A program made the position numbers and the translations under genes. DNA of 49,481 nucleotides from the IMG/VR virus record IMGVR_UViG_3300045988_168456; one strand, given 5' to 3'. Positions 404-39,990 of the stretch are shown piece by piece (the first letter of the stretch is position 1; each line of letters opens with the position of its first letter). The DNA is from a virus. The notes under the pieces are model-generated. The model saw only the letters and a list, made by a program, of their open reading frames with translations. It was not told where the DNA came from and ran no database searches.

Positions 404-672
404 ATTAAAATTCGCGTTATAGGAGTTGATATAATAGAAATAAATATAATATCTATCTCATTAATGAAAATAGCGAGAATGATAGCGAGAATAAGCGACG
501 TCCAAAAACTTAAACAAAAATCACAATCAAATAATTGAGAAATAAGCTTAGGGGCTTTTATAATTATCTCATCACGCATACCAATTTTTCCAATCAATAA
601 AATAATAAATGCTGCTACTAAGGCTATACATATTAAAGCCGAAAGCATTGTTATAAAATATATCGTTGACAT
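400..672 (-). CDS. Small membrane protein (2-3 predicted TM helices)
   Basis: 90-aa ORF with hydrophobic stretches (ICIALVAAFIILLIG, SLILAIILAIF). Translationally coupled to its neighbours on both sides. Confidence 0.5.
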   Translation of the reverse strand: MSTIYFITMLSALICIALVAAFIILLIGKIGMRDEIIIKAPKLISQLFDCDFCLSFWTSLILAIILAIFINEIDIIFISIISTPITRILI

Positions 673-8521: not shown

Positions 8522-8608
8522 ATTCTCGTACTATATTTATTCAAAGCTTATGATTTAATCAGTCATATATAATTAAAAACTCATAGATTACGAGAATAAT
8601 GCGAGAAT
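8522..8608. repeat. Inverted ATTCTCGTA / TACGAGAAT pair plus a tandem GCGAGAAT
   Basis: attctcgta at 8522-8530 and tacgagaat at 8589-8597, then gcgagaat at 8601-8608 (11-nt phasing). Intergenic, between the Zn-ribbon ORF and 7701..8357. Confidence 0.7.
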
Positions 8609-8614
8609 ATAAGC

Positions 8615-8782
8615 TTATAACGTTTTTATGCATTTATCACATATAGTTATTATTTTTCCATTCCTTATAATAACTTTACCACAATCATGTCTTAACTCTT
8701 TCATTGTAGGTTTATAATGTATATAATGGTTTATACAAACACCACATTTATCACATGTAACCTCATATACTTTTGTAATCAT
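8615..8782 (-). CDS. Small zinc-ribbon protein (55 aa; not in the ORF track)
   Basis: My translation is MITKVYEVTCDKCGVCINHYIHYKPTMKELRHDCGKVIIRNGKIITICDKCIKTL, with CDKC...CDKC pairs. The ATG is 4 nt after the TerL stop. Confidence 0.5.
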   Translation of the reverse strand: MITKVYEVTCDKCGVCINHYIHYKPTMKELRHDCGKVIIRNGKIITICDKCIKTL

Positions 8783-8785
8783 ATA

Positions 8786-10357
8786 TTAATTTCTTAAGTG
8801 TATTTTTTTACGTCCGCCTTTTCTTGCATGCATTTCATATACCCCTGTTAAGCAATCTGGGGCATCATCGTGTTGATTTCTCTTTTTGTTATCTTTACGG
8901 TATGACATAAGAGCTTTGTAAAATTTAGGCCATTTCCTTTCCCAGCCTTCTGGGAACAAAATATCATTCTGAACATTAGCAGAAGCTGCATAAATACGAG
9001 CTTTTTTGTTTTCTGTCTGTGTAAATGTTTTAACAGCACATCTGAAATTACGCAGTTCAACTCTTAATATGCGTTTTACATTACGTGAGTAGCCTCGGCC
9101 ACCATTATTCGATTCAATTAAAGCCTCAACTGTACCATTTTTGGTCAACATTTCAGCTTGTTTTGGCTCTGTGACCTCCATAGGTGCATCTGTGAACAAA
9201 ACATCAGTTACATAACAAAATTCAGGTGTATTTATAAAACAAATTGAGCATAAATCATCAGCTCCAGTATCAGCTGTATCAGTATAATTCCACTTTTGAA
9301 GTGCTTTTGTACCTGTTGGAAGCTCTTCTATTTTATAAGTTCTAAATTCTTCATACATAAGGCCCTCTTTTGGTGTTGGGTCCTGCATGTACTGTGTATC
9401 GAATACAAGCGGATTTATCTCACGCATCTTATAAAGCTCTTCAAGTGTATGCTTCATTGGCCAAAGTGCATGTTCTTCTCCAGTTTCTGGGTCTACTTGT
9501 ATAACTGGAAGTGATAAAACAGTCCATTCGTCTGGCTCTATCTCTTGCAAATAGCCACAAAGGTCATGTTCATGTAGCCTTTGCATTATTATAATGATTG
9601 GAGTGTTACGCGAGTTAGTACGGTTACGAATTGTGTTCTCAAATCGCATGTTAATACGCTCGCGGACAATATCTGACTCAGCATCTTCTGGCTTAATTGG
9701 GTCATCGATTACAATCGCGCCTTGGAAAATGTTTGTCGTAGCTCCTATCATATCAAGCATCTCATTCGTATGGTCATCAAATGTGAATATATCATTGCCT
9801 CCGTCCATTTTATCAATATCTGGTACTTCGTCTACCGCTCCTGCACCAAATCCGGTTACTTGGCCTTGAGTTGATACTGCATAAAGTTCTCCTCCAGCTT
9901 TAGTTTTCCATCTTTTAGCTGACCCTTTTTCAGATGCAAGAGCCGAGTTAGGAAAAAGAGTCTTATAAAGCTCTTCTTGCATGATATTTCTGATTGTTTC
10001 AGAATTATCATTCACGAGTATATCTGAATAAGATAGATGCAAAAATCGACACTTTGGATTTAGCGCAAAACACCATGATATAAATGATTTGATAACAAGT
10101 TCAGTTTTACCATAGCGTGGAGCTATATTAATTATAAGCCGTCTACATTTACCATCAACAACATCTTGTAATACTTCAAACATTTTCTTATGGTGTTCTG
10201 CAACTATAAAACTTCTATGGTATTGCGCCTTAAACATGCACTTTGTATACTTCTCAAAAGAAGATAGTAATTCAACCTGAAGAAGTTCTTTAGGATTTAC
10301 AGTTCCGGCCTTAGTAGTATTTAGGGCCCTTTCTTGCATTGTTTTTAGTGAGTCCAT
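8786..10357 (-). CDS. terL: Terminase large subunit
   Basis: Walker A-like IAPRYGKTE, Walker B-like AIVIDDP, and a C-terminal nuclease-type acidic cluster (DTADTGADD, HDDAPDCL). 523 aa. Confidence 0.9.
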   Translation of the reverse strand: MDSLKTMQERALNTTKAGTVNPKELLQVELLSSFEKYTKCMFKAQYHRSFIVAEHHKKMFEVLQDVVDGKCRRLIINIAPRYGKTELVIKSFISWCFALNPKCRFLHLSYSDILVNDNSETIRNIMQEELYKTLFPNSALASEKGSAKRWKTKAGGELYAVSTQGQVTGFGAGAVDEVPDIDKMDGGNDIFTFDDHTNEMLDMIGATTNIFQGAIVIDDPIKPEDAESDIVRERINMRFENTIRNRTNSRNTPIIIIMQRLHEHDLCGYLQEIEPDEWTVLSLPVIQVDPETGEEHALWPMKHTLEELYKMREINPLVFDTQYMQDPTPKEGLMYEEFRTYKIEELPTGTKALQKWNYTDTADTGADDLCSICFINTPEFCYVTDVLFTDAPMEVTEPKQAEMLTKNGTVEALIESNNGGRGYSRNVKRILRVELRNFRCAVKTFTQTENKKARIYAASANVQNDILFPEGWERKWPKFYKALMSYRKDNKKRNQHDDAPDCLTGVYEMHARKGGRKKIHLRN

Positions 10358-10359
10358 AT

Positions 10360-10932
10360 TTATTTCTTAGGTTGTGTATAGTTATACTTTATTTCTGCTG
10401 CTTTTCTTGCAGCTACTGCTTCTTCGAATGTGTTAAAATAGCCTAAGCAATCATACAGGGCTCTTCCGTTTTTTCTTTTACCATTCCCTATTGCTGCTAC
10501 CCACTTTTGTCGTCTTTTATGCCAATAAACTCCTGTATGGCCTGACGTATTATTTGTGTGCATTTTACGGTTTCTGCTGTTTTGTATACCAGATGCAAGG
10601 CGTAAGTTGTCAATTCTATTATTAAGGGTATTGCCATCTATATGGTCAATTTCTTTATTATCATCTGGCCATTTTCCATATTGATAAAACCATGCCAACC
10701 TATGCGCTTTATATACATTTTGGCCTATTACTATATTAGAATATCCTTTATGGTCTATAGTAATACCAGCTATATCTCCTACATTAGGGCTATCTTTTCG
10801 TTTACTACTTGCATATTTCCATCTAAATACGCCGGTTTCCGGATTATAGTCTAATATAGATAATAAGTACTCGTGCGAAAGAGCATATTCTTTCTCTTTC
10901 AAAGCTACAAAATTGTTGTCTGTTAGTGCCAT
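10360..10932 (-). CDS. HNH homing endonuclease with an AP2 DNA-binding domain
   Basis: DHIDGNTLNNRIDNLRL (HNH_3 type), followed by SGHTGVYWHKRRQKWVAAI...LGYFNTFEEAVAARKAAE (AP2 type). Inserted between the terS candidate and terL. Confidence 0.85.
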   Translation of the reverse strand: MALTDNNFVALKEKEYALSHEYLLSILDYNPETGVFRWKYASSKRKDSPNVGDIAGITIDHKGYSNIVIGQNVYKAHRLAWFYQYGKWPDDNKEIDHIDGNTLNNRIDNLRLASGIQNSRNRKMHTNNTSGHTGVYWHKRRQKWVAAIGNGKRKNGRALYDCLGYFNTFEEAVAARKAAEIKYNYTQPKK

Positions 10933-11743: not shown

Positions 11744-12493
11744 TTAATTTTTATTTATAAATTCTTGTTGTTTATTAAGCAAACTTTCTGCTCTTCGTTT
11801 TGCTTCTGTTTCTGAAAGCTGTTTTACTTTTATGCGGTTACTTTCCGGTATATCTATTATATCGTATTTTTCATAAGACCATATATACCCACCAGCTGTT
11901 TTTATATGCTTATTACAGCACATGCATATATTACTCGCTTGTATTCCTGAGTGGTATGATGCATCATTTATCGAGTTATATTCTTCTATAAATAAGCCAG
12001 AATTTATATCATACTTATACACATTTTTAGGTTTTCTTCCTTTTGGACCTTTTTTCAATGATTCTATATGAAGTGCGGCGCTTTTGCTTACATTTTCTAT
12101 CAATTCATTGTGTAAAGTAAAGGCGTATGGCTTTTCATCATTATTTACTAAAAGCAAAAAATTATACCCATAGGGATAATAAGTCATATTGCTTTTTATC
12201 AATTCATATTTGTTCTTTAATAACTCTGCTTTGCTATCTTTAAATACGCCTTTTACCTCTACTGTTATGTATTCGCTATTTAGAAATGATTGCCTAAGGT
12301 CAACGCTTTCTACTTTTGGGCTAAGAATCTTTTTCGCGAGTGATATTATGCCTTTTCGTACTGTCCAATCTAGTGTATGACAAATAATAATTTTGCTATC
12401 ATATTCAAATTCTACAGTAAATATAGCCCATTCTGTTAAGAGGGAATTTATGTTTCCAACTAAATCCACCTGTATACCTTCTATGTTTACCAT
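11744..12493 (-). CDS. Homing-endonuclease-like protein (C-terminal NUMOD/IENR-type DNA-binding module; N-terminal domain unrecognised)
   Basis: VYKYDINSGLFIEEYNSINDASYHSGIQASNICMCCNKHIKTAGGYIWSY matches the V.QYD..G..I..F.S..EA......I...C.....K.A.G..W pattern of phage homing-endonuclease DNA-binding modules. First gene of the leftward operon. Confidence 0.45.
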   Translation of the reverse strand: MVNIEGIQVDLVGNINSLLTEWAIFTVEFEYDSKIIICHTLDWTVRKGIISLAKKILSPKVESVDLRQSFLNSEYITVEVKGVFKDSKAELLKNKYELIKSNMTYYPYGYNFLLLVNNDEKPYAFTLHNELIENVSKSAALHIESLKKGPKGRKPKNVYKYDINSGLFIEEYNSINDASYHSGIQASNICMCCNKHIKTAGGYIWSYEKYDIIDIPESNRIKVKQLSETEAKRRAESLLNKQQEFINKN

Positions 12494-12532
12494 ATTTATA
12501 ATTATTTTTTATATTAATTAAGCTTTATGCTA

Positions 12533-12616
12533 CAAATGTATAAAACTATATTAGAATATAAAAATTCTCGCAATTATTTTTTATATTAAAATATAAGTAT
12601 GTAAATTTTTCTATTC
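12533..12616 (-). promoter_or_regulatory. Candidate Bacteroidota-type promoter of the structural operon
   Basis: The minus strand reads TACATTTG (TAnnTTTG -7 box, plus 12533-12540) about 40 nt upstream of ATG 12493. The AAATTTTTCTAT element at 12603-12616 is shared with two other operon heads. Confidence 0.5.
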
Positions 12617-13076
12617 TCGTAGAAAATAATTCTATTCTCGCGTAAACAATAAACGAAATAAACTATGACTTCCTTCCTAATTTATTGAGTTCCTAGTTTG
12701 AATTATTAGATTTATCCCTATTAATTCTATTAATTCTATCTAACAACTCATTTATGTTCTCCTTAAATCTTCTTGTTTACATTGTTTATAGTACATATAA
12801 CTTGTTGAAAATCAATCACTTATCGAGAAACAATTCATTGTTTATTTTGTTTCTTATTGTTTCTCTTGCGAGAATGCCATTTTGCTAATTCCCTATTAAG
12901 CATAAGGGGCCTAAATTGATATTTGTGAGAATGTATGCGAGAATGAGAATTTATGAGCCTCTGGGCCTTGCTCATACTTATATTATGATTTGTTAGCCAG
13001 TTTGCGAGAATGACTTGAGGCCAAAAAAATTTTCTGGCTATGGATATGGTTCTATATACTATATATAGGGGCACCC

Positions 13077-13117
13077 AGGCATTGCAGCAGGGGGCCTAGG
13101 CATTGCAGCAGGGGCCT
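13077..13117. repeat. GC-rich tandem direct repeat AGGCATTGCAGCAGGGG(G)CCT x2
   Basis: Units at 13077-13097 and 13098-13117 differ by one G. Embedded in AT-rich non-coding DNA. Confidence 0.9.
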
Positions 13118-13632
13118 AATTTCTGAATCGGCGAAATTTATTTGGTTAAATAGCTTTAAGCCTGATAGCCTCATTCGTTAATTATGGTTTAATTCGTTAA
13201 AGGTTGTTAGCCTGTCAGCCTGTTAACAACTCTTAACTAAAATAATTTTCAGGTTCTAAACCATTTACAGGCACACAGGCAATCAGCCAATAAAGTTTAA
13301 CGAAAATTTAACACTTCCTAACTAAATATATTTTCAGGTTTCAAATATTTTATTACTTGATAGGCATAAAATGATTATTTCAACTTATTAACAAAACAAC
13401 CGAGAAATTTAATACGATTTAACCCAAAAAAATCATGAAAAATTTTTCTAATTTAAAAATTATTCGTATATTTACATATCGGAAATAACAAACATACCAC
13501 TGGTTATTAAACATAGTTTAACAGTTTCATTAACGAAATTTAACCATAAATATTTTTCCGGTTAAAATAAAATTAGTACTTTTACAATATAAATAAAACG
13601 GAAATAATATGAATAATTAAAATATAACAGCA

Positions 13633-13989
13633 ATGAAAATTAACAGAAATTATCATTTTGTCCTGACAGTTCTGGACAGCGAGAAAATTGTAGCAGGAGA
13701 AATAAGCATTGAAAATAATGCAGTATCGGGCGAGAGAATATTTGCCAGCGAATGCCACTACTATGCCGAGAAAAATATTATTGAGTGCATTAAAGATGCA
13801 GCCAAGAGAGATGAACTGGGCGAATATTATAATCACACTTATTGCATTTACAAAGAGGACAAGCCGAAAAAAGAAATTACTGAGCGCGAAGAAGGCGACA
13901 AGAAAATCACAGAGACAAGAGAAATACCCGGAAAAGCTATGCTACTCGAAATAATAACAGTAGACGAGTGTGGGGTGACTATCCGATAA
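13633..13989 (+). CDS. Early protein, unknown function
   Basis: 118-aa ORF with an ATG start. First rightward gene after the control region. The overlapping alternative frame 13709..13954 cannot be excluded. Confidence 0.5.
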   Translation: MKINRNYHFVLTVLDSEKIVAGEISIENNAVSGERIFASECHYYAEKNIIECIKDAAKRDELGEYYNHTYCIYKEDKPKKEITEREEGDKKITETREIPGKAMLLEIITVDECGVTIR

Positions 13990-14127
13990 GGATAGTCACA
14001 GCCCTCTCGGGAGAACTCTACACAAGAGACGGCAGTCCGACTCTGCCGGAGGGCACAATTGGCAATATTGCTGAGAGAATTAAAATAAACAGTAATATAA
14101 ACAAGAGAATAACGGGAGAATACAGTT

Positions 14128-14478
14128 ATGACAAAAAACTATTACAGGAGTGATTACTCCGACAAACAGTGGAAAGCCTTAATTGACAAGGCCACGGAAC
14201 TGGGTTGCCAGATAACCTATAGCAAATACGGCAACATAGTAACAATTGACAGCACAGACCGAGAGAATTCTATTCTTAAATCGGTTGGTGCAGGAGAAGA
14301 ATATAGAGTTATGTGGGCAGACCATATCCATAACATGCTGCAGGAGAGCACGGACTTAAGAACGTGGAAAGTACAGCCTAAGAGATACCACCGCAGCTAT
14401 TGTCCGACTATCTGCAGGAGTCAGAAGTCAGCAGAACATGAGCAGGAGCGTCTCGAGAGAAATTACAAACTGATATGA
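14128..14478 (+). CDS. Early protein, unknown function
   Basis: 116-aa ORF with an ATG start. GC is clearly above the genome average (about 47% in a hand-counted 60-nt sample). Confidence 0.5.
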   Translation: MTKNYYRSDYSDKQWKALIDKATELGCQITYSKYGNIVTIDSTDRENSILKSVGAGEEYRVMWADHIHNMLQESTDLRTWKVQPKRYHRSYCPTICRSQKSAEHEQERLERNYKLI

Positions 14479-16488: not shown

Positions 16489-17317
16489 ACTGCTATAGAT
16501 AAATTTCTGTTAAACACCTCGAAGAAAGCTGCTCTGTGAAGAGCGGCTTTTCTTTTATGCCGTATATTTAATTGATATACGGTATTTTTTATATAACAGT
16601 TTTATATGTCAAAATATGTAAACTCATAGAAACATGCTTCTTTCGCGTTCTAAGGAACTTTCATATCTGAGATATACTATAATATAGGTTAACTCAATTC
16701 GATGCGATAGAGGTTAAAAGAAGTATATCTATCAATATATATTATGACTTCATAAGAATATATTAATGCATAGACTTTCCTGAACTTTAAGTTACCAAGC
16801 AGTTATATAAATAGCTGTTAAATTTATGACTAAAAAGTTGACTCATTTTCGCGCGTTCTAGGACACTTTTATTTGAGAGTCATAGGAATTATCATTCTCA
16901 AAAAGAAATGATGAGAGAATGAATGAAAATAATGAAATTTCATATATCTCCAAGGCATTTAGAGTTCTATATTTTTATATTAAAGCTGCAATAAACCAGT
17001 AAAAATTTTTATGTTAAAGCTTGTAAAACAGTAATTCGTATTAAGATTATTATGTATTTTAGCTTATAAGAGAATAAAGTAAAACTGTTAAAAAATGTTA
17101 CATGCTAGAATACATAAAAGCTGCATGACCGCTATAATTAAGCAGTTTATGCTTAAGCACATAAAACACATATACAGTATGTTACGTAGCAATTGTCCAC
17201 ACTGGACTCCATACGTGGTACAGGAAATAGCCGAGAGAATATTTGCCACAATTGGACAGGAGAATATCACAAGCCTCTAACAAGAGAAATGTTGAACAAA
17301 AATAAACAAGAGAATAT
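16489..17317. promoter_or_regulatory. 0.8-kb largely non-coding region with two TTCGCG(CG)TTCTA(A)GGA boxes
   Basis: Boxes at 16642-16656 and 16848-16863, with similar flanks (ACTCAT upstream, TGAGA downstream). Only short doubtful ORFs are present (17088..17270 minus, 17095..17280 plus). Confidence 0.6.
16525..16556 (+). terminator. Rho-independent terminator
   Basis: aaagctgctc (16525-16534), loop tgtgaa, gagcggcttt (16541-16550). A 10-bp stem with one G-U pair, followed by tctttt. Confidence 0.8.
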
Positions 17318-17794: not shown

Positions 17795-17816
17795 CAAGTA
17801 AACAGGAGAAATATAA

Positions 17817-17846
17817 AGCAGACTACAGAAAAGTAGTCTGCTTTTT
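17817..17846. terminator. Bidirectional intrinsic terminator between convergent genes
   Basis: agcagactac (17817-17826), loop agaaaa, gtagtctgct (17833-17842). A perfect 10-bp stem flanked by an A-run and a T-run. Sits between 17318..17794 (+) and 17845..18567 (-). Confidence 0.8.
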
Positions 17847-18567
17847 ACATTAAGTTTTCATCTTCTTCTACAACAAGAGAATAGCCAATTCCTCGTATAG
17901 TTTCTATTACTATTCTACTATCCATTTTAAGCATATTTCGCAGCATACATATATGGACATCTAAGCTACGTTTATTAAAGTAGTTATCATCAGTCCATAT
18001 TTGTTGCATGAGTATTTTCTTAGGTAACGTTTCATTTTTATAAGCACACAATAAAGCAAGAACTTGACTTTGTTTATTATTAAGCTGTGTTTTTACATTG
18101 CCTATAGTAAGAATTTTGTTTATAGTATTAAACATATAATCACCTATCTTATAAGATGGCTCTATACCTCTCACTTGCACACCACATCTTTTTAGAACAG
18201 CTTTTATTCTTCTTATAAGTTCTTCAATATTGTATGGCCTTATAATATAATCATCTACACCTTCATCAAACGCTTCAATAACATACTCATATCGAGCTTT
18301 ATCTGATACCATTATTATAGGTATTTTATTATCCGATTTGCGTAAAAATTTTAGCGGCTTTAACATCATAGAGGTATCTGTTGTTTTATAATGGCTTAGT
18401 ATACATAAATCATAGTTTTTTTCTTTGATTTTATCCAATATATTATTCTCAGTTGATGTTATTACTTGAAAGCCGTTATACACCAAGTAATCTACCATAA
18501 TTTTACAATCTTCATCTTGGTATATTAAAATTCTCGGTAATGCTAATTTTGTATTATTATCTTTCAT
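17845..18567 (-). CDS. Atypical OmpR/PhoB-family response regulator (receiver plus winged-helix domain; phospho-acceptor Asp replaced by Ser)
   Basis: Receiver-like RILIYQDED...YDLCILSH...IPIIMVSD...GVDDYIIRPY. C-terminal trans_reg_C pattern LNNKQSQVLALL...RSLDVHICMLRNML...IETIRGIGYSL. Confidence 0.85.
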   Translation of the reverse strand: MKDNNTKLALPRILIYQDEDCKIMVDYLVYNGFQVITSTENNILDKIKEKNYDLCILSHYKTTDTSMMLKPLKFLRKSDNKIPIIMVSDKARYEYVIEAFDEGVDDYIIRPYNIEELIRRIKAVLKRCGVQVRGIEPSYKIGDYMFNTINKILTIGNVKTQLNNKQSQVLALLCAYKNETLPKKILMQQIWTDDNYFNKRSLDVHICMLRNMLKMDSRIVIETIRGIGYSLVVEEDENLM

Positions 18568-19442
18568 ACCATTTTTTTAATTTCATTTTGCAAATTGTTA
18601 TATAAAACTTCATACCAAAATGGATTAAGTCTTAACAAATCAAAATATGAATATACACCTTTTTGGTATATTAAAGAAGCATATTTAAGCTCTTTATCCG
18701 TTCTCTTTTTGAGATGTTCATGGTAGAACTTTATAGATTGGTCCACATTTATTAAGAATGGTGATTTATGTTCCATAAGAACTTTTTGTTCTGTATTTTG
18801 AACAAAATAATATGGAATATTTGGCATTGCCCAAAAAGTCAGTTCAGCCCCATATTCTTTACTTGCTTTATATAAAAAGCCAGGGCATGTACGAATTGAA
18901 TCTGGATATAAGTTTTTACATATTCTTAATCTACGTGGAATAAAAGGATTAAGTAAAGTAGTTAATCGCTTATTTATATAAGTTGAATACTTATCAATCA
19001 TTCTTGTGTGTTCTTTAACAAGCGATGAAACTAATAGTTTAATCCTTTCATTTCCTATAGGGTCGCTTAGGCGTATATATTCTTGCCTGAAAGCTTCACG
19101 TTGAATCCGTATTCTATCTTCTTTAAGACGCTGAGACTTTTTCGTTTTAGCTTCTATACTAGCAATAGCAGCTCTGTGCTGTCCTTCTGGTCCAAATAAT
19201 TTTACGCCTCTACAGCTATTTGGGCCCAAACCAGTCCATGACATTTTATCTCCATATCTAGCCTCAATCTCTCTATTTTCCTGTTCTTCTTCAGATAATT
19301 CAACATGCTCTTCTTCTATAGCAATCTTTTCAATTGCTTCAGATTGAGCTTCTTGAATATCCTCATCATCACTTTTAATTTCATCGAGAAATTCAAAGAG
19401 TTCCTTTTCTGTTAAGTCTCCATACTGCTTAATATCTTCCAT
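18564..19442 (-). CDS. Hypothetical protein with a very acidic N-terminus, translationally coupled to the response regulator
   Basis: 292-aa ORF. Its stop overlaps the regulator ATG (ATGA at 18564-18567). No motif recognised. Confidence 0.6.
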   Translation of the reverse strand: MEDIKQYGDLTEKELFEFLDEIKSDDEDIQEAQSEAIEKIAIEEEHVELSEEEQENREIEARYGDKMSWTGLGPNSCRGVKLFGPEGQHRAAIASIEAKTKKSQRLKEDRIRIQREAFRQEYIRLSDPIGNERIKLLVSSLVKEHTRMIDKYSTYINKRLTTLLNPFIPRRLRICKNLYPDSIRTCPGFLYKASKEYGAELTFWAMPNIPYYFVQNTEQKVLMEHKSPFLINVDQSIKFYHEHLKKRTDKELKYASLIYQKGVYSYFDLLRLNPFWYEVLYNNLQNEIKKMV

Positions 19443-19620
19443 ACCATTTAAATAGTGACTTGATTATATCTTTTCCAGCTTGCTTATTAAGCAATCCAAA
19501 ATATGCAATCGCAAGCGTGAGTCTTGCTATTTTATGTAATATCCAGGCTAATAGATATATAGGGAAATAAAGTACACCTATATATCTCCATAAAAATTTA
19601 AGTACCTTTTTCATTTCCAT
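19429..19620 (-). CDS. Small membrane protein
   Basis: 63-aa ORF with hydrophobic IGVLYFPIYLLAWIL and LTLAIAYFGLL. Overlaps the next gene by 14 nt. Confidence 0.5.
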   Translation of the reverse strand: MEMKKVLKFLWRYIGVLYFPIYLLAWILHKIARLTLAIAYFGLLNKQAGKDIIKSLFKWYGRY

Positions 19621-19727
19621 AATCCTTTTTTATATAAAAACTTTCCTGCATTCATACCCAAGCTAAACATTCCTGAGCCAAAAAGAACCAATGCTAATAT
19701 CTCATGCAATGTTATTTCCATAACTTT

Positions 19728-20948: not shown

Positions 20949-21602
20949 TTATTCTTTTTTCATGCTAAAGTGTTTTTCATATATATGTAAGTCATGCGCA
21001 AAGTGGTAATATGTGCCTATTGGTACACCGAGCTCATCTGCAACTAATTGTTGAAGCTTTGTCCAACAATACTGGTCATTGCAAAAACCATAAACCAAAT
21101 CATTGCTTCGCATAGTTACGCACATATCAAGAGTTCCTATTTGAGGCTTAATATCAAATCCGACTGATAACGTACAGGGTGTATCATACTTATAGTCATC
21201 TTTTTCTTTGCCATCAAATATAGTAAACCAAGCTTGGCGAGTATCTTTATTTTCTCTAAGCTGTTTAATACACTTTTCTAATTGATTATTACGAGTCCAT
21301 TGCCACCCATAATTAGAATTGACAATATTATTCCCATTATGCATTTTATCCCATATAGGAGCATATTTTTTAATTTCTTCAACGCTTCTATTACATGACA
21401 TATACCAAGCAAATTCTCGCTCTGCATATCGTTCGCTAAATTTACGCCATTTTGTTGTTATGATACGTTGCTGAGGATTAAGTAAATAAAAACCAACATT
21501 GTAAATAGCTTTTGTTCCAACATTAGTATTTACTCCTTTACTCATGATAAAAGCATATAGGTTTTCAAAAGCCTCGGTAGCATTTTTATAAATCGTGTTC
21601 AT
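20949..21602 (-). CDS. Thymidylate-synthase-family pyrimidine C5 transferase (ThyA versus dCMP/dUMP hydroxymethylase or methylase not resolved)
   Basis: NYGWQWTRN, DTRQAW, catalytic-type TPCTLSVGF, MRSNDLVYGFCND and HDLHIYEKH match ThyA-fold motifs. It is short at 217 aa. Confidence 0.8.
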   Translation of the reverse strand: MNTIYKNATEAFENLYAFIMSKGVNTNVGTKAIYNVGFYLLNPQQRIITTKWRKFSERYAEREFAWYMSCNRSVEEIKKYAPIWDKMHNGNNIVNSNYGWQWTRNNQLEKCIKQLRENKDTRQAWFTIFDGKEKDDYKYDTPCTLSVGFDIKPQIGTLDMCVTMRSNDLVYGFCNDQYCWTKLQQLVADELGVPIGTYYHFAHDLHIYEKHFSMKKE

Positions 21603-21760
21603 GCTTCTTCATGTTCATAAGTTAATACTAAAGTTGCTCCATAATCATACCAAAGAAGTTCTTCAAGCTCTTCTATAGTATTGCAATTGTATCTATACAT
21701 TTCAGCCTCTAAGTCATTAGGACTGTCTATTATTAGTGTATTTTCAGCTATAGTTGTCAT
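21599..21760 (-). CDS. Small acidic protein (53 aa; not in the ORF track)
   Basis: My translation is MTTIAENTLIIDSPNDLEAEMYRYNCNTIEELEELLWYDYGATLVLTYEHEEA. ATGA overlap with the ThyA-like start. Confidence 0.4.
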   Translation of the reverse strand: MTTIAENTLIIDSPNDLEAEMYRYNCNTIEELEELLWYDYGATLVLTYEHEEA

Positions 21761-21761
21761 A

Positions 21762-22223
21762 TTACTTGACTATTTTATTGGTATTACTGTTATAAACTCT
21801 AAATAACAATTCTTCAGCTTCCTCATTCATAGTATCACAAATGCTTATTGCTTCTTCCATAGATAAATCTGTAAGTTCTTCATTATTATCATTTACTGCA
21901 ATTTCGCCAGTTATAACTCTAACATCAAATGAGTTTGCAGAAGCAAAAGCCTTAGTAGCATCAAGAGCTTGTGTGCAAATACAATACACAGCATCCCAGT
22001 ATATAAAAGATAAAGTGCTTGTATGTTTTAATATACTTATATAAAACTCTCTTAGCTTCTCAGGTTTAAACCATCCTTGCTCATCCATCCGTCTATATTC
22101 AGCAAGCCATCTGCCATAACCATTATTCGCTTTGAATTTGTTAGCATAAACAGCTACAAACCTAAGAAACTGGTCTGTATAAATGACTTGAGGAATTTCT
22201 ATTGTTTTCTTTTTCGGTTTCAT
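21762..22223 (-). CDS. Hypothetical protein (153 aa from ATG 22223)
   Basis: The track ORF begins at GTG 22259. The internal ATG (MKPKKKTIEIPQ) overlaps the stop of the upstream small ORF (ATGA). Confidence 0.55.
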   Translation of the reverse strand: MKPKKKTIEIPQVIYTDQFLRFVAVYANKFKANNGYGRWLAEYRRMDEQGWFKPEKLREFYISILKHTSTLSFIYWDAVYCICTQALDATKAFASANSFDVRVITGEIAVNDNNEELTDLSMEEAISICDTMNEEAEELLFRVYNSNTNKIVK

Positions 22224-22396
22224 TTGCTGAATTTCTGTTTCAAATATGAAAAATTCCACATTATAGTTTCATATACTTCTTCAGACTCGCGTATTAGTAT
22301 TGCTCCACGACATATATCGGTCATATTTATTATGCCTCTATTGCGAAGCTTTACAAATTTGAAAAATTGCTCTTTTGTTATTTCTTCTGCTTTCAT
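22220..22396 (-). CDS. Small protein (58 aa; not in the ORF track)
   Basis: My translation is MKAEEITKEQFFKFVKLRNRGIINMTDICRGAILIRESEEVYETIMWNFSYLKQKFSK. The length is 177 nt and it is in frame at both ends. Confidence 0.45.
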   Translation of the reverse strand: MKAEEITKEQFFKFVKLRNRGIINMTDICRGAILIRESEEVYETIMWNFSYLKQKFSK

Positions 22397-22411
22397 AAGC
22401 TTAAAGTTTAT

Positions 22412-22496
22412 ATTCTCGCGCGTTCTAGAGCCCGCTTATTATTCCATTATTATTCAATCATCTATGTACTTAAAGCGCGATATCGCGCGCGAGAAT
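22412..22496. repeat. Inverted ATTCTCGCGCG / CGCGCGAGAAT pair enclosing a GCGCGATATCGCGC palindrome
   Basis: Arms at 22412-22422 and 22486-22496. 14-bp palindrome at 22475-22488. Intergenic, between the dut stop (22514) and the next ATG (22396). Confidence 0.85.
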
Positions 22497-22513
22497 AATG
22501 TGAAAATCAATCC

Positions 22514-23008
22514 TTAGTATGACCCAGTAGACCCGAGTGCTCCATCACCACGCTCAGATGGACGACTGAAAAGCTCTGATTCAGGAACTTCTTCAAGGTC
22601 TTCGTACGATACAGGTACGAGAATAAATTGTGCTATTTTCATACCCGGTTTGATAAGCACTTTAGCTCTACCTATATTTATAAGATGTATATGAATTTCA
22701 CCTTGGTAATCTTCATCTACAATCTTTGCTCCAAGGATAACAATACTCTCAAATGCTTCTGGCTTTGGCGTTCTATTAGCTCCAAGGCAAGCCCATTTAG
22801 AAGTTACAACTCCTGATTTATCAGAAGCCATGAGCATATATCCTTCTGGAATTTCCATCTTAATGCCAGACGGTATTAAAATGTCAGTTCCTGGATTTAG
22901 TATAAAACCTTTATTATCACCAAAATTAGGAACAAAAAAATCAATTCCTGCAGCTTTACCTGTTCCTCTCATTGGAGACTTTACATCTCTTACTTTCGAA
23001 TATTTCAT
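22514..23008 (-). CDS. dut: Trimeric dUTPase-family protein
   Basis: AAGIDFF (motif 1), IVDEDYQGEIHI (motif 3), KIAQFIL (motif 4), RGDGALGSTGSY (motif 5). Confidence 0.85.
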   Translation of the reverse strand: MKYSKVRDVKSPMRGTGKAAGIDFFVPNFGDNKGFILNPGTDILIPSGIKMEIPEGYMLMASDKSGVVTSKWACLGANRTPKPEAFESIVILGAKIVDEDYQGEIHIHLINIGRAKVLIKPGMKIAQFILVPVSYEDLEEVPESELFSRPSERGDGALGSTGSY

Positions 23009-23010
23009 AT

Positions 23011-23481
23011 TTACTTATGATTTATAGTTAAAATGTGAATAAGATTTTGTATATACTTGTAGTCTTTGACTCTGCCGAGTTTCATTTTGTCTATAAGCGC
23101 ATATTCTACTTTTTGCACACCTATTATATGATGCTTCGCATGTTTCTTATCTTGCAATGAAAGTCTTACTTCCATATCAAGAATAGTATCATAGTCTTGT
23201 GTATTGTCTACTATGGCATTGATTTTAATGCCATCTATAAAGAAAGAATAGCATAGGCTTTCATAGTTATCATTCTTAAGACCTGCTAAAAACTAAAGTT
23301 CTGAAAGCTTATTTCTCTGTTCTTCTGTCAGGTGAAAGACTTTTATGTCTACATCTTGCGGGGCAAAATTAGACGGAACTCCAAGTAAGGCTAAAGCAAC
23401 TGTGCCTGTTACCATATACTCGATTTTGTTTGCAGCACAAAACTCATTAAGCTTAAACAATATTTCTGTATTTACGTTCAT
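23011..23481 (-). CDS. Nucleotidyltransferase-fold protein interrupted by one in-frame TAG (62 codons, TAG, 93 codons)
   Basis: The track ORF 23293..23481 contains VTGTVALALLG...QDVDIKV. The same frame stays open after TAG (23295-23293) down to TAA at 23013-23011, 2 nt before the dut ATG. I verified this codon by codon. Confidence 0.6.
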
Positions 23482-23500
23482 AACTATTATATTTTAAAAG

Positions 23501-24313
23501 TTAATACAAATCATCATCTTCAATTGGCTTGTTCACTTTAGGAGCCTTTATGTCTCTTGGTTTACGTTTTAATACCCAAAGAGTATTACGTGAAGCATCA
23601 GGGAACATAGGCGCCATGATATTAGCAATAAGGTTTGAATCATAATACTCTTTAAGAGCATCAAACATTTTTTTCTGCCAATCATTCATCAATGGCTTAT
23701 AGTCTTTGACTGAAGCAAATGTACCAAATTTCTTTACAATATCAAAGTGACATTTCAATATGCCTTCAAGTTCCCAATGGTCAAACTCTTGTACATCAAC
23801 TCCGCGGCCATCACCTGAATCATAAGTATGATTACCTGCCGCTCCAACTGATGGGTCATAATTCGGAGTTGAAAGATAATAAGTAGCATTGTTATTACCA
23901 CAGACCTTAAAGTTCTCAAGAAACTTATGAGCATTTTGTTTGCCTACGTGTTCAAGCACTTCAAACGCGCAAACCTTATCAGCATTAAACTGACTAAAAT
24001 CCATATAGTTTTTAACAAGGTCTGCTACATAAAAATGAGCCCAAGGCACATTAGCGTATTTCTCAGCCGCTTCTTGAATTGTTTTCTCGCGAATGTCAAT
24101 ACCGATATACTCTTTCTGCTTAAACTTGTTCCTGTATAATACCTCGAGCAAATTAGCAGCTCCACAACCAAAATCAACAATAGATTCACCAATCTTGGCT
24201 TCTTTCAGAATATGAGTCCATCGTAAATAATGTGCGAATTGGTCTCTGTGAAATACATGACGTTCAAATGCTTGGTCTGGCCTGAGGTCTGTTGTATTAT
24301 AAACTTTTGCCAT
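23501..24313 (-). CDS. Class I SAM-dependent methyltransferase
   Basis: Motif I IVDFGCGAANLL, and the later CAFEVLEHV typical of Methyltransf_11/23-type enzymes. No DPPY/NPPY DNA amino-methyltransferase motif seen. Confidence 0.8.
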   Translation of the reverse strand: MAKVYNTTDLRPDQAFERHVFHRDQFAHYLRWTHILKEAKIGESIVDFGCGAANLLEVLYRNKFKQKEYIGIDIREKTIQEAAEKYANVPWAHFYVADLVKNYMDFSQFNADKVCAFEVLEHVGKQNAHKFLENFKVCGNNNATYYLSTPNYDPSVGAAGNHTYDSGDGRGVDVQEFDHWELEGILKCHFDIVKKFGTFASVKDYKPLMNDWQKKMFDALKEYYDSNLIANIMAPMFPDASRNTLWVLKRKPRDIKAPKVNKPIEDDDLY

Positions 24314-24826: not shown

Positions 24827-25065
24827 TACAGCATTGATTTTAGTTCTTCTTTTAATTTTTTGGCATCAGCGCCTCTAAATGTTTGAGCATTTGCTAAAAA
24901 GTATCTAACAATATCTCCTGCAGTATCATAAAGATATATAGCATTCGGGTCTGAAGTATCAAGCGTTAGCATCGCTTCTAAATAAGGCACTGCACCAAAA
25001 TATACATTAAGCCATGTTGACTTTATATCTTTTGCTATTTGCTGAAATGTTCTTTTTTTATTCAT
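24826..25065 (-). CDS. Small hypothetical protein; first gene of the nucleotide-metabolism operon
   Basis: 79-aa ORF with an ATG start, preceded by a promoter-like element. Confidence 0.5.
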   Translation of the reverse strand: MNKKRTFQQIAKDIKSTWLNVYFGAVPYLEAMLTLDTSDPNAIYLYDTAGDIVRYFLANAQTFRGADAKKLKEELKSML

Positions 25066-25100
25066 ATTATTATATTATTTCAAATGTGAATATACTAATT

Positions 25101-25130
25101 TTTTCGAGAACAAAAAATTTTTTTTCTATA
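25101..25130 (-). promoter_or_regulatory. Conserved promoter-associated element TTCGAGAACAAAAAATTTTTTTTCTAT
   Basis: Near-identical architecture to 34868-34895 (TTCTCGAAAGAAAGAAATTTTTTTCTAT). Lies in the 103-nt gap upstream of ATG 25065. Confidence 0.5.
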
Positions 25131-34853: not shown

Positions 34854-34895
34854 CAAATATATAAACTATTCTCGAAAGAAAGAAATTTTTTTCTA
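34854..34895 (-). promoter_or_regulatory. Candidate Bacteroidota-type promoter of the replication operon
   Basis: The minus strand reads TATATTTG (plus 34854-34861) about 36 nt upstream of ATG 34818. The conserved TTCTCGAAAG...AAATTTTTTTCTAT element lies just upstream. Confidence 0.55.
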
Positions 34896-34927
34896 TTTAT
34901 TTTGAGATTTATTTGTTAAAAATAATT

Positions 34928-35171: not shown

Positions 35172-35564
35172 TTACCGCTTTATGAAATATTTTACACACA
35201 GCCATATAATTATTAAAACTATGGCAGCAATTAGGTATTCACCCATATTAATTTTTATCTTTTGCCATTTAGTAAGTTGAGCTTCTATAGGGTATGCAAT
35301 TTGAATTGTATCAACTTTTTCTTGCCAAAGTGTATCATGCTTTTCTATGTATTTATATACATATTTATACTTATTAAGATACACAGTATCGCCTTTATGT
35401 TCAATATAAATAGAATCTCTTTGATATATACTATCTATTTTAATTTTTGATATATACGTAGTATCTCTTTTAATTGTTTCTACTGGCATATATTGAATTG
35501 ATTTACAACTATATAGCACGGCAACTAAAAATACAAGTATAATTATTCTCACATATTCTCGCAT
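35172..35564 (-). CDS. Unimolecular spanin candidate (N-terminal lipoprotein signal plus C-terminal TM helix)
   Basis: MREYVRIIILVFLVAVLYSC is a lipobox-like signal. C-terminal YLIAAIVLIIIWLCVKYFIKR. Last gene of the holin-amidase cassette. Confidence 0.6.
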   Translation of the reverse strand: MREYVRIIILVFLVAVLYSCKSIQYMPVETIKRDTTYISKIKIDSIYQRDSIYIEHKGDTVYLNKYKYVYKYIEKHDTLWQEKVDTIQIAYPIEAQLTKWQKIKINMGEYLIAAIVLIIIWLCVKYFIKR

Positions 35565-35604
35565 AATATTAATTTTTTGTTAGTAAATATTCATCTTTAA
35601 TATG

Positions 35605-35647
35605 AAAGTCATTCTCGTAATAATTTCTTATATGCGAGAATGACTTT
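35605..35647. terminator. 13-bp hairpin built from the CGAGAAT motif, between the amidase and spanin genes
   Basis: aaagtcattctcg (35605-35617), a 17-nt loop, cgagaatgacttt (35635-35647). Whether it acts as a terminator or a protein-binding site is unresolved. Confidence 0.45.
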
Positions 35648-38640: not shown

Positions 38641-39990
38641 TCAATTGAATTTTTTATACCTCGGATACAGAAGTTTTCCATTTTTCAAATTCGGGTTAGG
38701 TATCTGAATATACCCGAAATCTCCTTTTATCACTCTCCCGACATATTCGTCCATATTTATATCTGCATATACATAAATATTATAGTACAAGCTGTTGAAA
38801 GTGAGTTTATATCTATAACCATAAATCGCATTGCCCATCAATGAATCGCTTGGGGAAACATTGACATAAGTATTCATGGCATATCCCGCTTCGTTTTTCT
38901 TGGCAAGAGTTCCGTTATCTATGTTTGACATCTCTATCGTACAAATCTTTTGATGGCTGATAACATAAGCCGCACTTTTGAAATAGACGATAATGTTATA
39001 TCCTGAACCTTCTATTTTCCCGACAAATGAAATATCGCCGTTGGAACTGTCGATTTTAAACAAATTACTGTACGACAGGAAATAATTGAATCCGTTGTAT
39101 TCGCATTGCCCGAAATTCTGAATATCTGAAATAGAGGCTCCGGACAATTCTTTCAGATCGAATTCTTTTTCAGTGAGACCGGTTTCAAAATCTATCAGTC
39201 GTAGAACGCCATCGTTTTTGTAAAAATAAACGAAGTCCTTATATTCGACGAAGTTGCAATTATAGTACGGTTCTGATAAAGTCCATATCTTAGTTCGTGT
39301 ATCTAAATCCCAGCAGGTGATGGCACTACTGTTAGGTACAATGATTTTACCGTCTTTATAAACGAAGCAAGAGTTTCTAATATGTTGATATAAATGTATA
39401 TTTAACGGGATTTCATCATAAACGGTATCTTCTCCTGTCTGTTCATTCCAACAGGCAAGCCTGCTATCCTTGTTGCAATAAAAGAACAAACCGTTTTTAA
39501 AATAATACAGCTGGAAGGTTTTACTCGTATCTTCGAATAATTTCCCGTTTATCCCCTGCGCAGAAATAACATTGTCTTTTATTTCGACGTTTTCTCCACT
39601 AATCAATCTGTCTTGTTTCCCTGAAATTTTATCGTCTATGCTCTCCGCCGCTTGGTTCGCTTTATCGGCCGCCTCATTAGCGAGAGTTGCCGAGTTGTTC
39701 GCTGCCGTTGCGGCATCATTAGCTGCTTCTGCTGCGATATTAGCAGATTGTGTTGCATCATTAGCTGCTTCTGCTGCAGTATTAGCTGCTTCTGCTGCAC
39801 TATTAGCTTTAGTTGCTGCATCATTAGCCACTTCTGCCGCATCTAAAGCAGGTTTTTGTATTTGCTCTATTTGTTCCGGAGTAAGGTCCTCAAAAGTGCA
39901 TTTCATACAAGGAATGACCGCCTCTTCTTTACTAGAAGGTATTTCCGGAACAATCATTCTTTCATGTGTTATAAAGCAATCTTCTTTCAT
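38641..39990 (-). CDS. Tail fibre / receptor-binding protein
   Basis: The N-terminal Ala/Asn heptad array (AAEAAND-like, about 10 units) is typical of fibre shafts. The C-terminal region is rich in beta strands. GC is distinctly higher than in neighbouring tail genes. Confidence 0.7.
   Translation of the reverse strand: MKEDCFITHERMIVPEIPSSKEEAVIPCMKCTFEDLTPEQIEQIQKPALDAAEVANDAATKANSAAEAANTAAEAANDATQSANIAAEAANDAATAANNSATLANEAADKANQAAESIDDKISGKQDRLISGENVEIKDNVISAQGINGKLFEDTSKTFQLYYFKNGLFFYCNKDSRLACWNEQTGEDTVYDEIPLNIHLYQHIRNSCFVYKDGKIIVPNSSAITCWDLDTRTKIWTLSEPYYNCNFVEYKDFVYFYKNDGVLRLIDFETGLTEKEFDLKELSGASISDIQNFGQCEYNGFNYFLSYSNLFKIDSSNGDISFVGKIEGSGYNIIVYFKSAAYVISHQKICTIEMSNIDNGTLAKKNEAGYAMNTYVNVSPSDSLMGNAIYGYRYKLTFNSLYYNIYVYADINMDEYVGRVIKGDFGYIQIPNPNLKNGKLLYPRYKKFN
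39640..39846 (-). repeat. 21-nt (heptad) periodic repeat array inside the fibre gene
   Basis: DNA repeats of ttagctgcttctgctgc-type units encode AAEVANDAATKANSAAEAANTAAEAANDATQSANIAAEAANDAATAANNSATLANEAADKANQAAESI. Confidence 0.85.

Follow-up and report, generated by a model that had tools for sequence, protein, structure and literature searches.

Why a virus should carry a response regulator that lacks the phospho-acceptor aspartate of its family, and what such a protein could do in infection, is the question raised by the DNA described here. The window (the whole stretch analysed, 49,481 nt of the IMG/VR virus record IMGVR_UViG_3300045988_168456) contains a gene for an atypical OmpR/PhoB-type protein of 240 amino acids, which is RprY-like and is referred to below as the regulator. 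It is very probably a phosphorylation-independent DNA-binding regulator. The full statement, in which it is a kinase-independent transcription factor derived from RprY and directed at the phage's own DNA, was given a probability of about 0.4. The gene and its domains are located as follows.

17845..18567, minus strand: regulator gene, 240 amino acids, an open reading frame (ORF) with Pfam Response_reg and Trans_reg_C domains
18187..18534, minus strand: pseudo-receiver, residues 12-127, with Q17, D18, S58, S88 and R110 at the five catalytic positions
17869..18162, minus strand: winged-helix DNA-binding domain, residues 136-233, from Pfam Trans_reg_C and the topology of the AlphaFold2 (AF2) model

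The initial annotation of this DNA, made from the sequence alone, had described a receiver followed by a winged-helix output domain. Both were found above their Pfam cutoffs: Response_reg (PF00072) scored 36.7 bits against a cutoff of 30.2 over residues 22-122, and Trans_reg_C (PF00486) scored 60.9 bits against 26.2 over residues 160-231. In the AF2 model (predicted local distance difference test, pLDDT, 72) the receiver is composed of five strand-helix units in a (beta-alpha)5 fold. The DNA-binding domain is modelled as a four-stranded sheet with three helices and a wing hairpin; the recognition helix spans approximately residues 200-213 and the wing residues 219-233. The top Foldseek matches were all full-length OmpR/PhoB regulators, among them the atypical HP1043, RitR and GlnR, and the full-length matches to KdpE, RpaA, PrrA and PhoP had E values of 1e-14 to 1e-11. 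The receiver alone superposes in Foldseek on ArlR, PmrA and VicR with template modelling (TM) scores of 0.81-0.88 at 2.2-3.0 Å.

The catalytic positions were assigned in three ways. A phmmer alignment with M. tuberculosis PrrA placed S58 opposite the acceptor aspartate, Q17-D18 opposite the acidic pair and R110 opposite the conserved lysine. A MAFFT alignment with E. coli PhoB and OmpR and 130 relatives gave Q-D-S-S-Y-R for the regulator versus E-D-D-T-Y-K for PhoB. In the AF2 model, the residues at these positions lie at or just past the C-terminal ends of strands b1, b3, b4 and b5. Three of the five catalytic residues are thus replaced (Q17, S58 and R110), and D18 and S88 fit the canonical quintet. 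The substitutions that had been read by eye, Ser for the acceptor Asp, Arg for the conserved Lys and Gln for the first acidic residue, were recovered by phmmer, MAFFT and AF2 alike, and the alignments put no aspartate at the acceptor position. The protein falls under the published definitions of a pseudo-receiver, an aspartate-less receiver and an atypical response regulator (PMC12632262), and it is predicted from its sequence not to be phosphorylatable at the canonical acceptor site. C21, C55, C174 and C207 were also found to be invariant within the clade, C207 being located in the DNA-recognition helix. By analogy with RitR, which is a redox sensor, a thiol-based input is conceivable for a regulator in a phage of gut anaerobes.

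Across 84 unique genes, Q17, D18, S88, Y107 and R110 are invariant, and position 58 is occupied by Ser (76 genes) or Gly (8 genes). Another relative has Cys at the acceptor position. The sister lineage L090 retains the acceptor Asp, but its second acidic residue is replaced by Val and its Lys by Ile. Nearly all clusters at 33-53% identity (the nearest ~40) have Gln at the first acidic position, the second being degenerate, and canonical E-D-D-T-Y-K proteins form the majority only at lower similarity. The atypical state is accordingly stronger than had been claimed at first, since the acceptor drifts between Ser, Gly and Cys and the whole family is without the first acidic residue. Judging from these alignments, the common change is the loss of the metal-binding pocket, with the other catalytic positions drifting afterwards.

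The median ratio of nonsynonymous to synonymous substitution rates (dN/dS) was 0.069 for the receiver versus 0.124 for the DNA-binding domain (2410 pairs), and the recognition helix is nearly invariant within the clade. The receiver is a working domain with a different job, most plausibly dimerisation through the a4-b5-a5 face. It is hardly conceivable that the receiver is a remnant in decay, with the gene captured from the host and retaining little or no function. The loss of three catalytic residues and a Response_reg score barely above the Pfam cutoff would suit such a history, but the selection analysis effectively refutes it. Moreover, the regulator was present in 134 of 136 close loci, the two exceptions being contig ends, and members as little as 37% identical are found on ~50-kb phage genomes whose synteny is conserved. 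The receiver fold was also confidently modelled over most of its length, with TM scores of 0.8-0.88 to solved receivers.

The family comprises 513 proteins at E <1e-10 and 52 clusters (50% identity) at E <1e-30. The longest contigs of the nearest ten clusters are mostly 44-57 kb long, like complete genomes of this phage group, and three of these clusters (regulator 37-46% identical) show the same synteny and replication genes as the window. The clade of this regulator itself was found on dozens of ~50-kb human-gut contigs. Sequence comparison thus places the regulator in a large family of pseudo-receiver regulators borne by phages with ~50-kb genomes. Among the PHROGs, response-regulator-like proteins are already grouped as phrog_731, to which no function is assigned. 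In the phage reference collection no relative above 32% identity was obtained, and many of the matches were bacterial contigs filed as phage. Among 185,579 bacterial species genomes there was no close relative, the best match having 31% identity over part of the protein; the regulator is therefore neither a recent capture nor a prophage gene. Pattern scans of IMG/VR, genomes and metagenomes for distant members returned mostly the clade of this genome.

The two ends of the window are joined by an exact 85-nt direct repeat (1-85 and 49397-49481). From this repeat we concluded that the window represents the whole genome of a phage, 49,396 bp in length and either circularly closed or terminally redundant. 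It encodes structural proteins (terminase, portal, major head protein, tape measure), lysis proteins (holin, amidase), replication proteins (DNA polymerase A, primase-helicase, an SNF2-type helicase, an exonuclease and a single-stranded DNA-binding protein) and nucleotide-related enzymes (dUTPase, a ThyA-like enzyme and a methyltransferase). Kinases and transcription factors were sought with Pfam and PHROGs among ORFs of at least 100 amino acids on the scanned coding strands. No histidine kinase (HisKA, HATPase_c) was found among these ORFs, which bears out the earlier statement that none is encoded. The same scans revealed no recognisable transcription factor besides the regulator.

The best NCBIfam family of the regulator is RprY (NF051850), with 170 bits versus 106 for PhoB. 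Since the curated cutoff is 370 bits, we regard the protein as an RprY-derived paralogue and not as RprY itself. The regulator and its phage relatives scored 148-170 bits against RprY and at most 116 against any other family, and their nearest canonical relatives are true RprY proteins (P0284, 442 bits, above the cutoff). The DNA-binding domains of the regulator and RprY have the signatures LLALLCA, IW-DDNYFN-RS-DV-I--LR and G-GY-L in common. Overall identity to RprY is 33-35%, and 5 of the 14 recognition-helix residues differ, including those aligned with the base-contacting residues of PhoB. In five host loci inspected by eye, rprY lies directly behind rprX, as the upstream gene ends in a sequence like the G-box of a kinase. 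The gene upstream of the phage regulator encodes an unrelated 292-amino-acid protein and not rprX. These signatures, together with the position of host rprY behind rprX, lead us to describe the phage protein as a degenerate, kinase-less offshoot of RprY. The two proteins are alike in OmpR/PhoB architecture and length, and the RprX/RprY system belongs to Bacteroidota, the host group of the related phages. RprY differs in having the canonical E-D-D-T-Y-K residues and an adjacent kinase gene, rprX, whereas the phage protein has Q-D-S-S-Y-R and no kinase.

Regulators of the OmpR/PhoB type without the aspartate are well known from bacteria (HP1043, ChxR, RitR, GlnR, CmrT). HP1043 (HsrA) of H. pylori is likewise an orphan with a degenerate receiver that functions free of phosphorylation (PMC8345958, PMC5253667), and it was found among both the sequence and the structure matches of the regulator (2hqr). 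It differs in being an essential chromosomal gene of a bacterium, and the structural alignment shows ~22% identity; it recognises TTTAAG-N5-TTTAAG, and descent in common with the phage regulator holds only at family level. ChxR of Chlamydia trachomatis is an atypical OmpR/PhoB protein which forms a dimer, binds direct repeats and activates without phosphorylation (PMC3960148). Unlike the phage regulator it is bacterial, has another substitution pattern and was not among the closest matches. RitR of streptococci and CmrT of C. difficile are OmpR-family proteins without the canonical phosphorylation chemistry. RitR was among the structural matches (5u8m, 5u8k, 5vfa); it is controlled through a redox-sensitive Cys, whereas the phage regulator shows conserved Cys residues only. 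CmrT belongs to the atypical cmrRST system, which has two OmpR-family regulators (PMC12548384). In vibriophage VP882, VqmA is a phage homologue of a host regulator that steers infection (PMC10426928); it is a ligand-binding quorum-sensing receptor with its signal input kept, whereas the input of the phage regulator is lost.

In the proposed mechanism, the pseudo-receiver would act as a permanent dimerisation or regulatory module, as residues D105, D106, R120 and R127 of the a4-b5-a5 face are kept. The regulator would dimerise and bind DNA once made. With a permanent module and no signal, its activity would be set by the time and amount of its synthesis. Its target would be the phage's own GCGAGAAT elements, with tandems 10-12 bp apart and opposed arrays at the boundaries of gene modules, where it would adjust promoter use or read-through as infection proceeds. 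This assignment of the target is the weakest step of the explanation, and we hold it tentatively, at slightly worse than even odds. The elements are listed below.

473..492, plus strand: tandem GCGAGAAT-gata-GCGAGAAT with a 12-bp period
8522..8608, minus strand: hairpin module ahead of the major head protein gene; 11 bp away lies a further tandem copy of the word
12564-12641 (minus strand) and 12868-13011 (plus strand): the word in two arrays of opposite orientation within the 1.1-kb non-coding region, at a position conserved in relatives
22412..22496, minus strand: hairpin of ~87 nt in the spacer separating the dUTPase gene from the next one; basal stem ATTCTCGCGCG / CGCGCGAGAAT
35545..35641, minus strand: four-copy cluster of the word just downstream of the lysis genes (amidase, holin), with a tandem pair 10 bp apart

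The word GCGAGAAT is the most over-represented 8-mer in the genome, with 13 copies observed versus 0.97-1.24 expected (z 10.6). It is also the top 8-mer (z 12.1) in the relative L005, whose regulator is 70% identical. Tandems of [AG][CT]GAGAAT separated by 10-12 bp were located at 473/485, 8590/8601, 12925/12937 and 35545/35555. The cluster at 35545..35641 lies at the start of a 130-amino-acid gene (35172..35564), ahead of replication genes. The word clusters keep their positions and spacings in lineages with regulators 43-100% identical. In both regulator-less lineages, BF503P2 and L088/L089, the word occurs at chance level and no comparable family is present. The tandem spacing, the conserved positions and the status of the regulator as the sole recognisable transcription factor fit OmpR-type tandem binding. 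Candidate target repeats had been proposed in the initial annotation; the enrichment holds (13 copies versus ~1), and the tie to the regulator is an association only. Three other candidates were rejected. As an RprY autoregulatory box, GCGAGAAT occurred at chance in 59 host rprXY loci. TTAAC-N6-TTAAC showed no enrichment as a candidate site. The top 8-mer of BF503P2 was not an equivalent element, being scattered in coding sequence without common flanks. A second recurring word, CTAGAACGCG (about 16640, 16850 and 22425), flanks some of the GCGAGAAT copies and occurs twice in the non-coding stretch 16489-17317.

Part of the word copies belongs to a family of ~80-nt hairpins with the invariant basal stem ATTCTCG/CGAGAAT, observed at 22412-22496, 8522-8608 and 35545-35641 and at equivalent spots in L005, L077, L095, L153, L098, L090 and L550. 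The hairpin in the dUTPase spacer is a candidate regulator site or RNA element. L551 and L552 apart, every regulator-positive lineage has it at the corresponding place. Of the 22 pairs given by RNAalifold, 12 showed compensatory changes; no variation was seen in the basal 7 bp. On the transcribed strand, 14 G-U pairs were counted versus 6 A-C mismatches, which hints at an RNA element. The interiors of the hairpins at the head gene are wholly different between lineages and yet always self-complementary. No Rfam family matches these hairpins.

Several observations weigh against a target in the phage's own DNA. At no fewer than two sites the word forms the base of the ~80-nt covarying hairpins, so that it may be an RNA element with no relation to any DNA-binding protein. 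L551 and L552 bear the regulator and are without GCGAGAAT. In L551, a hairpin with a different shared stem, ATATAAGAGC/GCTCTTATAT (TAAGAGC/GCTCTTA), sits in the equivalent dUTPase spacer, and phages of this group seem generally to have hairpin families specific to their lineage. Residues 205 and 208, equivalent to base-contacting residues of PhoB, vary among lineages in which the word is invariant. The regulator-positive lineages are each other's closest relatives, so that the co-occurrence of regulator and word may reflect one evolutionary event. Related phages of the same genome plan do without the regulator, which is hence not core to the temporal programme. Nor was a promoter map obtained: the Bacteroides-type TTTG...TAnnTTTG gave 3 full matches versus 3.3 in shuffles, and a sigma-70 promoter scan of the genome was at background. 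When divergent regulators were compared with the dispersed words of their genomes for signs of co-evolution, the top words of L551 and L552 proved to be local tandem arrays, and the screen for dispersed words was of low sensitivity. There is a real possibility, a little short of an even chance, that the GCGAGAAT elements are unconnected with the regulator and occur with it through shared ancestry, as lineage-specific intergenic RNA hairpins (processing, stability or termination signals) or as small palindromic mobile elements homogenised by recombination. The compensatory changes, the unrelated but self-complementary interiors, the wobble pairs favouring the transcribed strand and the separate stem family of L551 at two places all suit this explanation, as does the location of every site within long co-directional gene blocks. 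It leaves unexplained the unpaired tandems at 10-12 bp and the opposed arrays 230 bp apart, and it gains no help from Rfam. The basal 7 bp, too, never vary while the rest of the hairpin does, which implies that the sequence itself is under selection.

The descent of the regulator from host RprY makes action on the host a serious alternative. An always-on version of the protein might bind RprY-type sites of Bacteroides without RprX and re-set the stress, chaperone and Na+-pump regulon to suit infection. RprY is the best curated family by a wide margin, with long DNA-binding-domain signatures in common; among the two-component systems of B. fragilis 638R, rprX/rprY is the only one reported to be essential (PMC4072883). 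Stress, chaperone and nqr genes are under the control of RprY, which binds the nqrA promoter of B. fragilis (PMC5706477). Retention of the regulator in lineages without GCGAGAAT also speaks for it, and the position at the end of an operon and the absence from sister phages are as often seen with accessory genes. We nevertheless judge this action on host sites rather unlikely, as identity to RprY is no higher than noted above, more than a third of the recognition helix (5/14) is changed, and the host species is inferred solely from related B. fragilis phages. It is more doubtful still, and in our view improbable, that DNA binding is secondary and that the pseudo-receiver docks RprX, or pairs with RprY through a4-b5-a5, as a decoy or dominant-negative protein blocking an essential host signalling pathway. 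A receiver constrained more than the DNA-binding domain and the RprY ancestry would be expected of such a protein, and interference of phage proteins with the two-component systems of their hosts has precedents such as PIT4 (PMC10714779). However, the DNA-binding domain is under purifying selection too, its recognition helix scarcely changing in the clade, and the low identity to RprY makes specific docking uncertain. Of the proposed targets, the phage's own elements are the most likely. A broader formulation, that ~50-kb gut phages made the essential host RprY into a signal-blind, always-on switch acting either on the host RprXY regulon or at the GCGAGAAT hairpin bases, appears to us rather unlikely.

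No paper on a phage-borne family of pseudo-receiver OmpR-type regulators, or on its descent from RprY, was found in the literature. Pseudo-receiver regulators are common and their control is poorly understood, and the phage regulator offers a clean natural case: it was freed from its kinase by the move into a virus and kept under strong selection, in a lineage abundant in human-gut metagenomes. Action on the host would point to phage manipulation of the one two-component system whose essentiality has been reported in B. fragilis. Action on the phage would open a way into the transcription control of Bacteroides siphophages, a subject that has hardly been studied. Should either target, the host regulon or GCGAGAAT, be correct, the regulator would be the first phage transcription switch made from a two-component response regulator to be characterised. 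The hairpin family with its invariant basal sequence is a separate, testable regulatory element.

The surroundings of the regulator gene were analysed next to it on the same strand.

19611..19721, minus strand: 36-amino-acid ORF, with the same translation as in the initial annotation
19429..19620, minus strand: ORF, gene for a 63-amino-acid protein
18564..19442, minus strand: ORF, gene for a 292-amino-acid protein
17815..17844, minus strand: 12-bp hairpin AAAGCAGACTAC / GTAGTCTGCTTT, beginning right after the regulator stop codon

All four ORFs, including that of the regulator, lie exactly where they had been placed. The overlap that had been described between the regulator ATG and the stop of the 292-amino-acid gene was read directly in the sequence as ATGA. 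The remaining overlaps are 14 nt (292- and 63-amino-acid genes) and 10 nt (63- and 36-amino-acid ORFs). The 17815..17844 hairpin is a probable bidirectional terminator common to the regulator and a convergent gene for a 158-amino-acid protein. The hairpin and the convergent gene make the regulator the last cistron of a long leftward block, which carries replication and nucleotide-metabolism genes.

The extremely acidic N-terminus ascribed to the 292-amino-acid protein was confirmed by a count of 26 Asp+Glu versus 6 Lys+Arg in the first 65 residues. The AF2 model shows an acidic N-terminal helix and a folded C-terminal domain, with a pLDDT of 75-92 for residues 100-290. The protein had been described as having no recognisable domain, and indeed no Pfam, PHROG, NCBIfam or PADLOC match was obtained; no fold match was found in the PDB. 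The model weakly matched viral models, one of them named Nmad5 (E 0.016, probability 1.0, TM 0.59 by target length, root-mean-square deviation 5.1 Å). The Nmad5 sequence profile was not recovered, as Pfam gave no match in any of 17 members of the family of the 292-amino-acid protein. A role in nucleotide or DNA modification, which the neighbourhood fits, is only a lead.

Homologues of the 292-amino-acid protein at 31-38% identity are encoded by the B. fragilis phages BF503P1/2/4, BF486P2/3 and BF494P1 and by the uncultured L088/L089. In all of these, the homologue ends the operon and no regulator follows. The hydrophobic 63-amino-acid protein, with a maximum hydropathy of 1.64 over 19 residues, was detected by tblastn at 50-98% identity in 10 of 10 representative loci, the regulator-less BF503P2 and L089 included. 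Its gene is the conserved partner of the 292-amino-acid gene in all lineages. The presence of the pair in regulator-less phages indicates that it predates the regulator, which was inserted downstream of it and before the convergent 158-amino-acid gene. The genes had been regarded as a coupled operon. Their physical coupling is real, but they are not a functional unit, because the 63- and 292-amino-acid genes are kept without the regulator in BF503P2 and L088/L089; the three genes thus do not always occur together in related phages. The 36-amino-acid ORF that had been noted ahead of them exists with the translation given, but it is not conserved, as it was detected only in the closest relative, L008, and it is probably not part of the module.

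Two further features of the genome were recorded.

12494-13632: non-coding region of 1.1 kb between divergent gene blocks, packed with repeats
31697-31781, minus strand: tRNA gene (Rfam tRNA, 47.6 bits), to which ARAGORN assigned a four-base anticodon (actt) and no amino acid

The non-coding region is probably the replication origin and main control region. It contains a 21-nt tandem, GGCATTGCAGCAGGGG(G)CCTA, in two copies near 13076-13117, and many TTTAAC words. ATTGTTT iterons at 12830-12860 were also present in the regulator-less phage L089. In L551, an 18-bp unit in ~20 copies (13941-14310), rich in CACACGCG, lies near the regulator gene, and in L552 a 29-bp unit in 9 copies (11887-12140) has a similar location; these arrays may be iterons. 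The L551 stem ATATAAGAGC/GCTCTTATAT was found at 8715-8800 and recurs at ~19046-19100. The tRNA may be of an unusual or suppressor type, or its loop may have been mis-parsed.

The operon at 20949-24313 has a nucleotide-modification flavour, with a SAM (S-adenosylmethionine) methyltransferase, the dUTPase and the ThyA-like enzyme. The relative L550 (5033-6034) has a 5-hydroxymethyldeoxyuridine (5-hmdU) DNA kinase domain where this genome has the methyltransferase. BF503P2 is annotated with two dCMP hydroxymethylases, and the comparison of operons also included L001 (321-3881). Phages of this group may carry hypermodified DNA. Two genes for HNH homing endonucleases, one with an AP2 domain and one NUMOD-like, lie beside the terminase genes (10360-10932 and 11744-12493), and the large terminase of L550 (18381-20717) holds an intein. 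A 65-nt repeat (71% identity) at 25065-25129 and 34832-34896 lies in intergenic spacers ahead of blocks of replication genes; the two copies may be related promoters or terminators. Within the tail-fibre-like gene 38641..39990, a periodic repeat of 21 nt (7 codons) is present in seven copies at 39677-39865.

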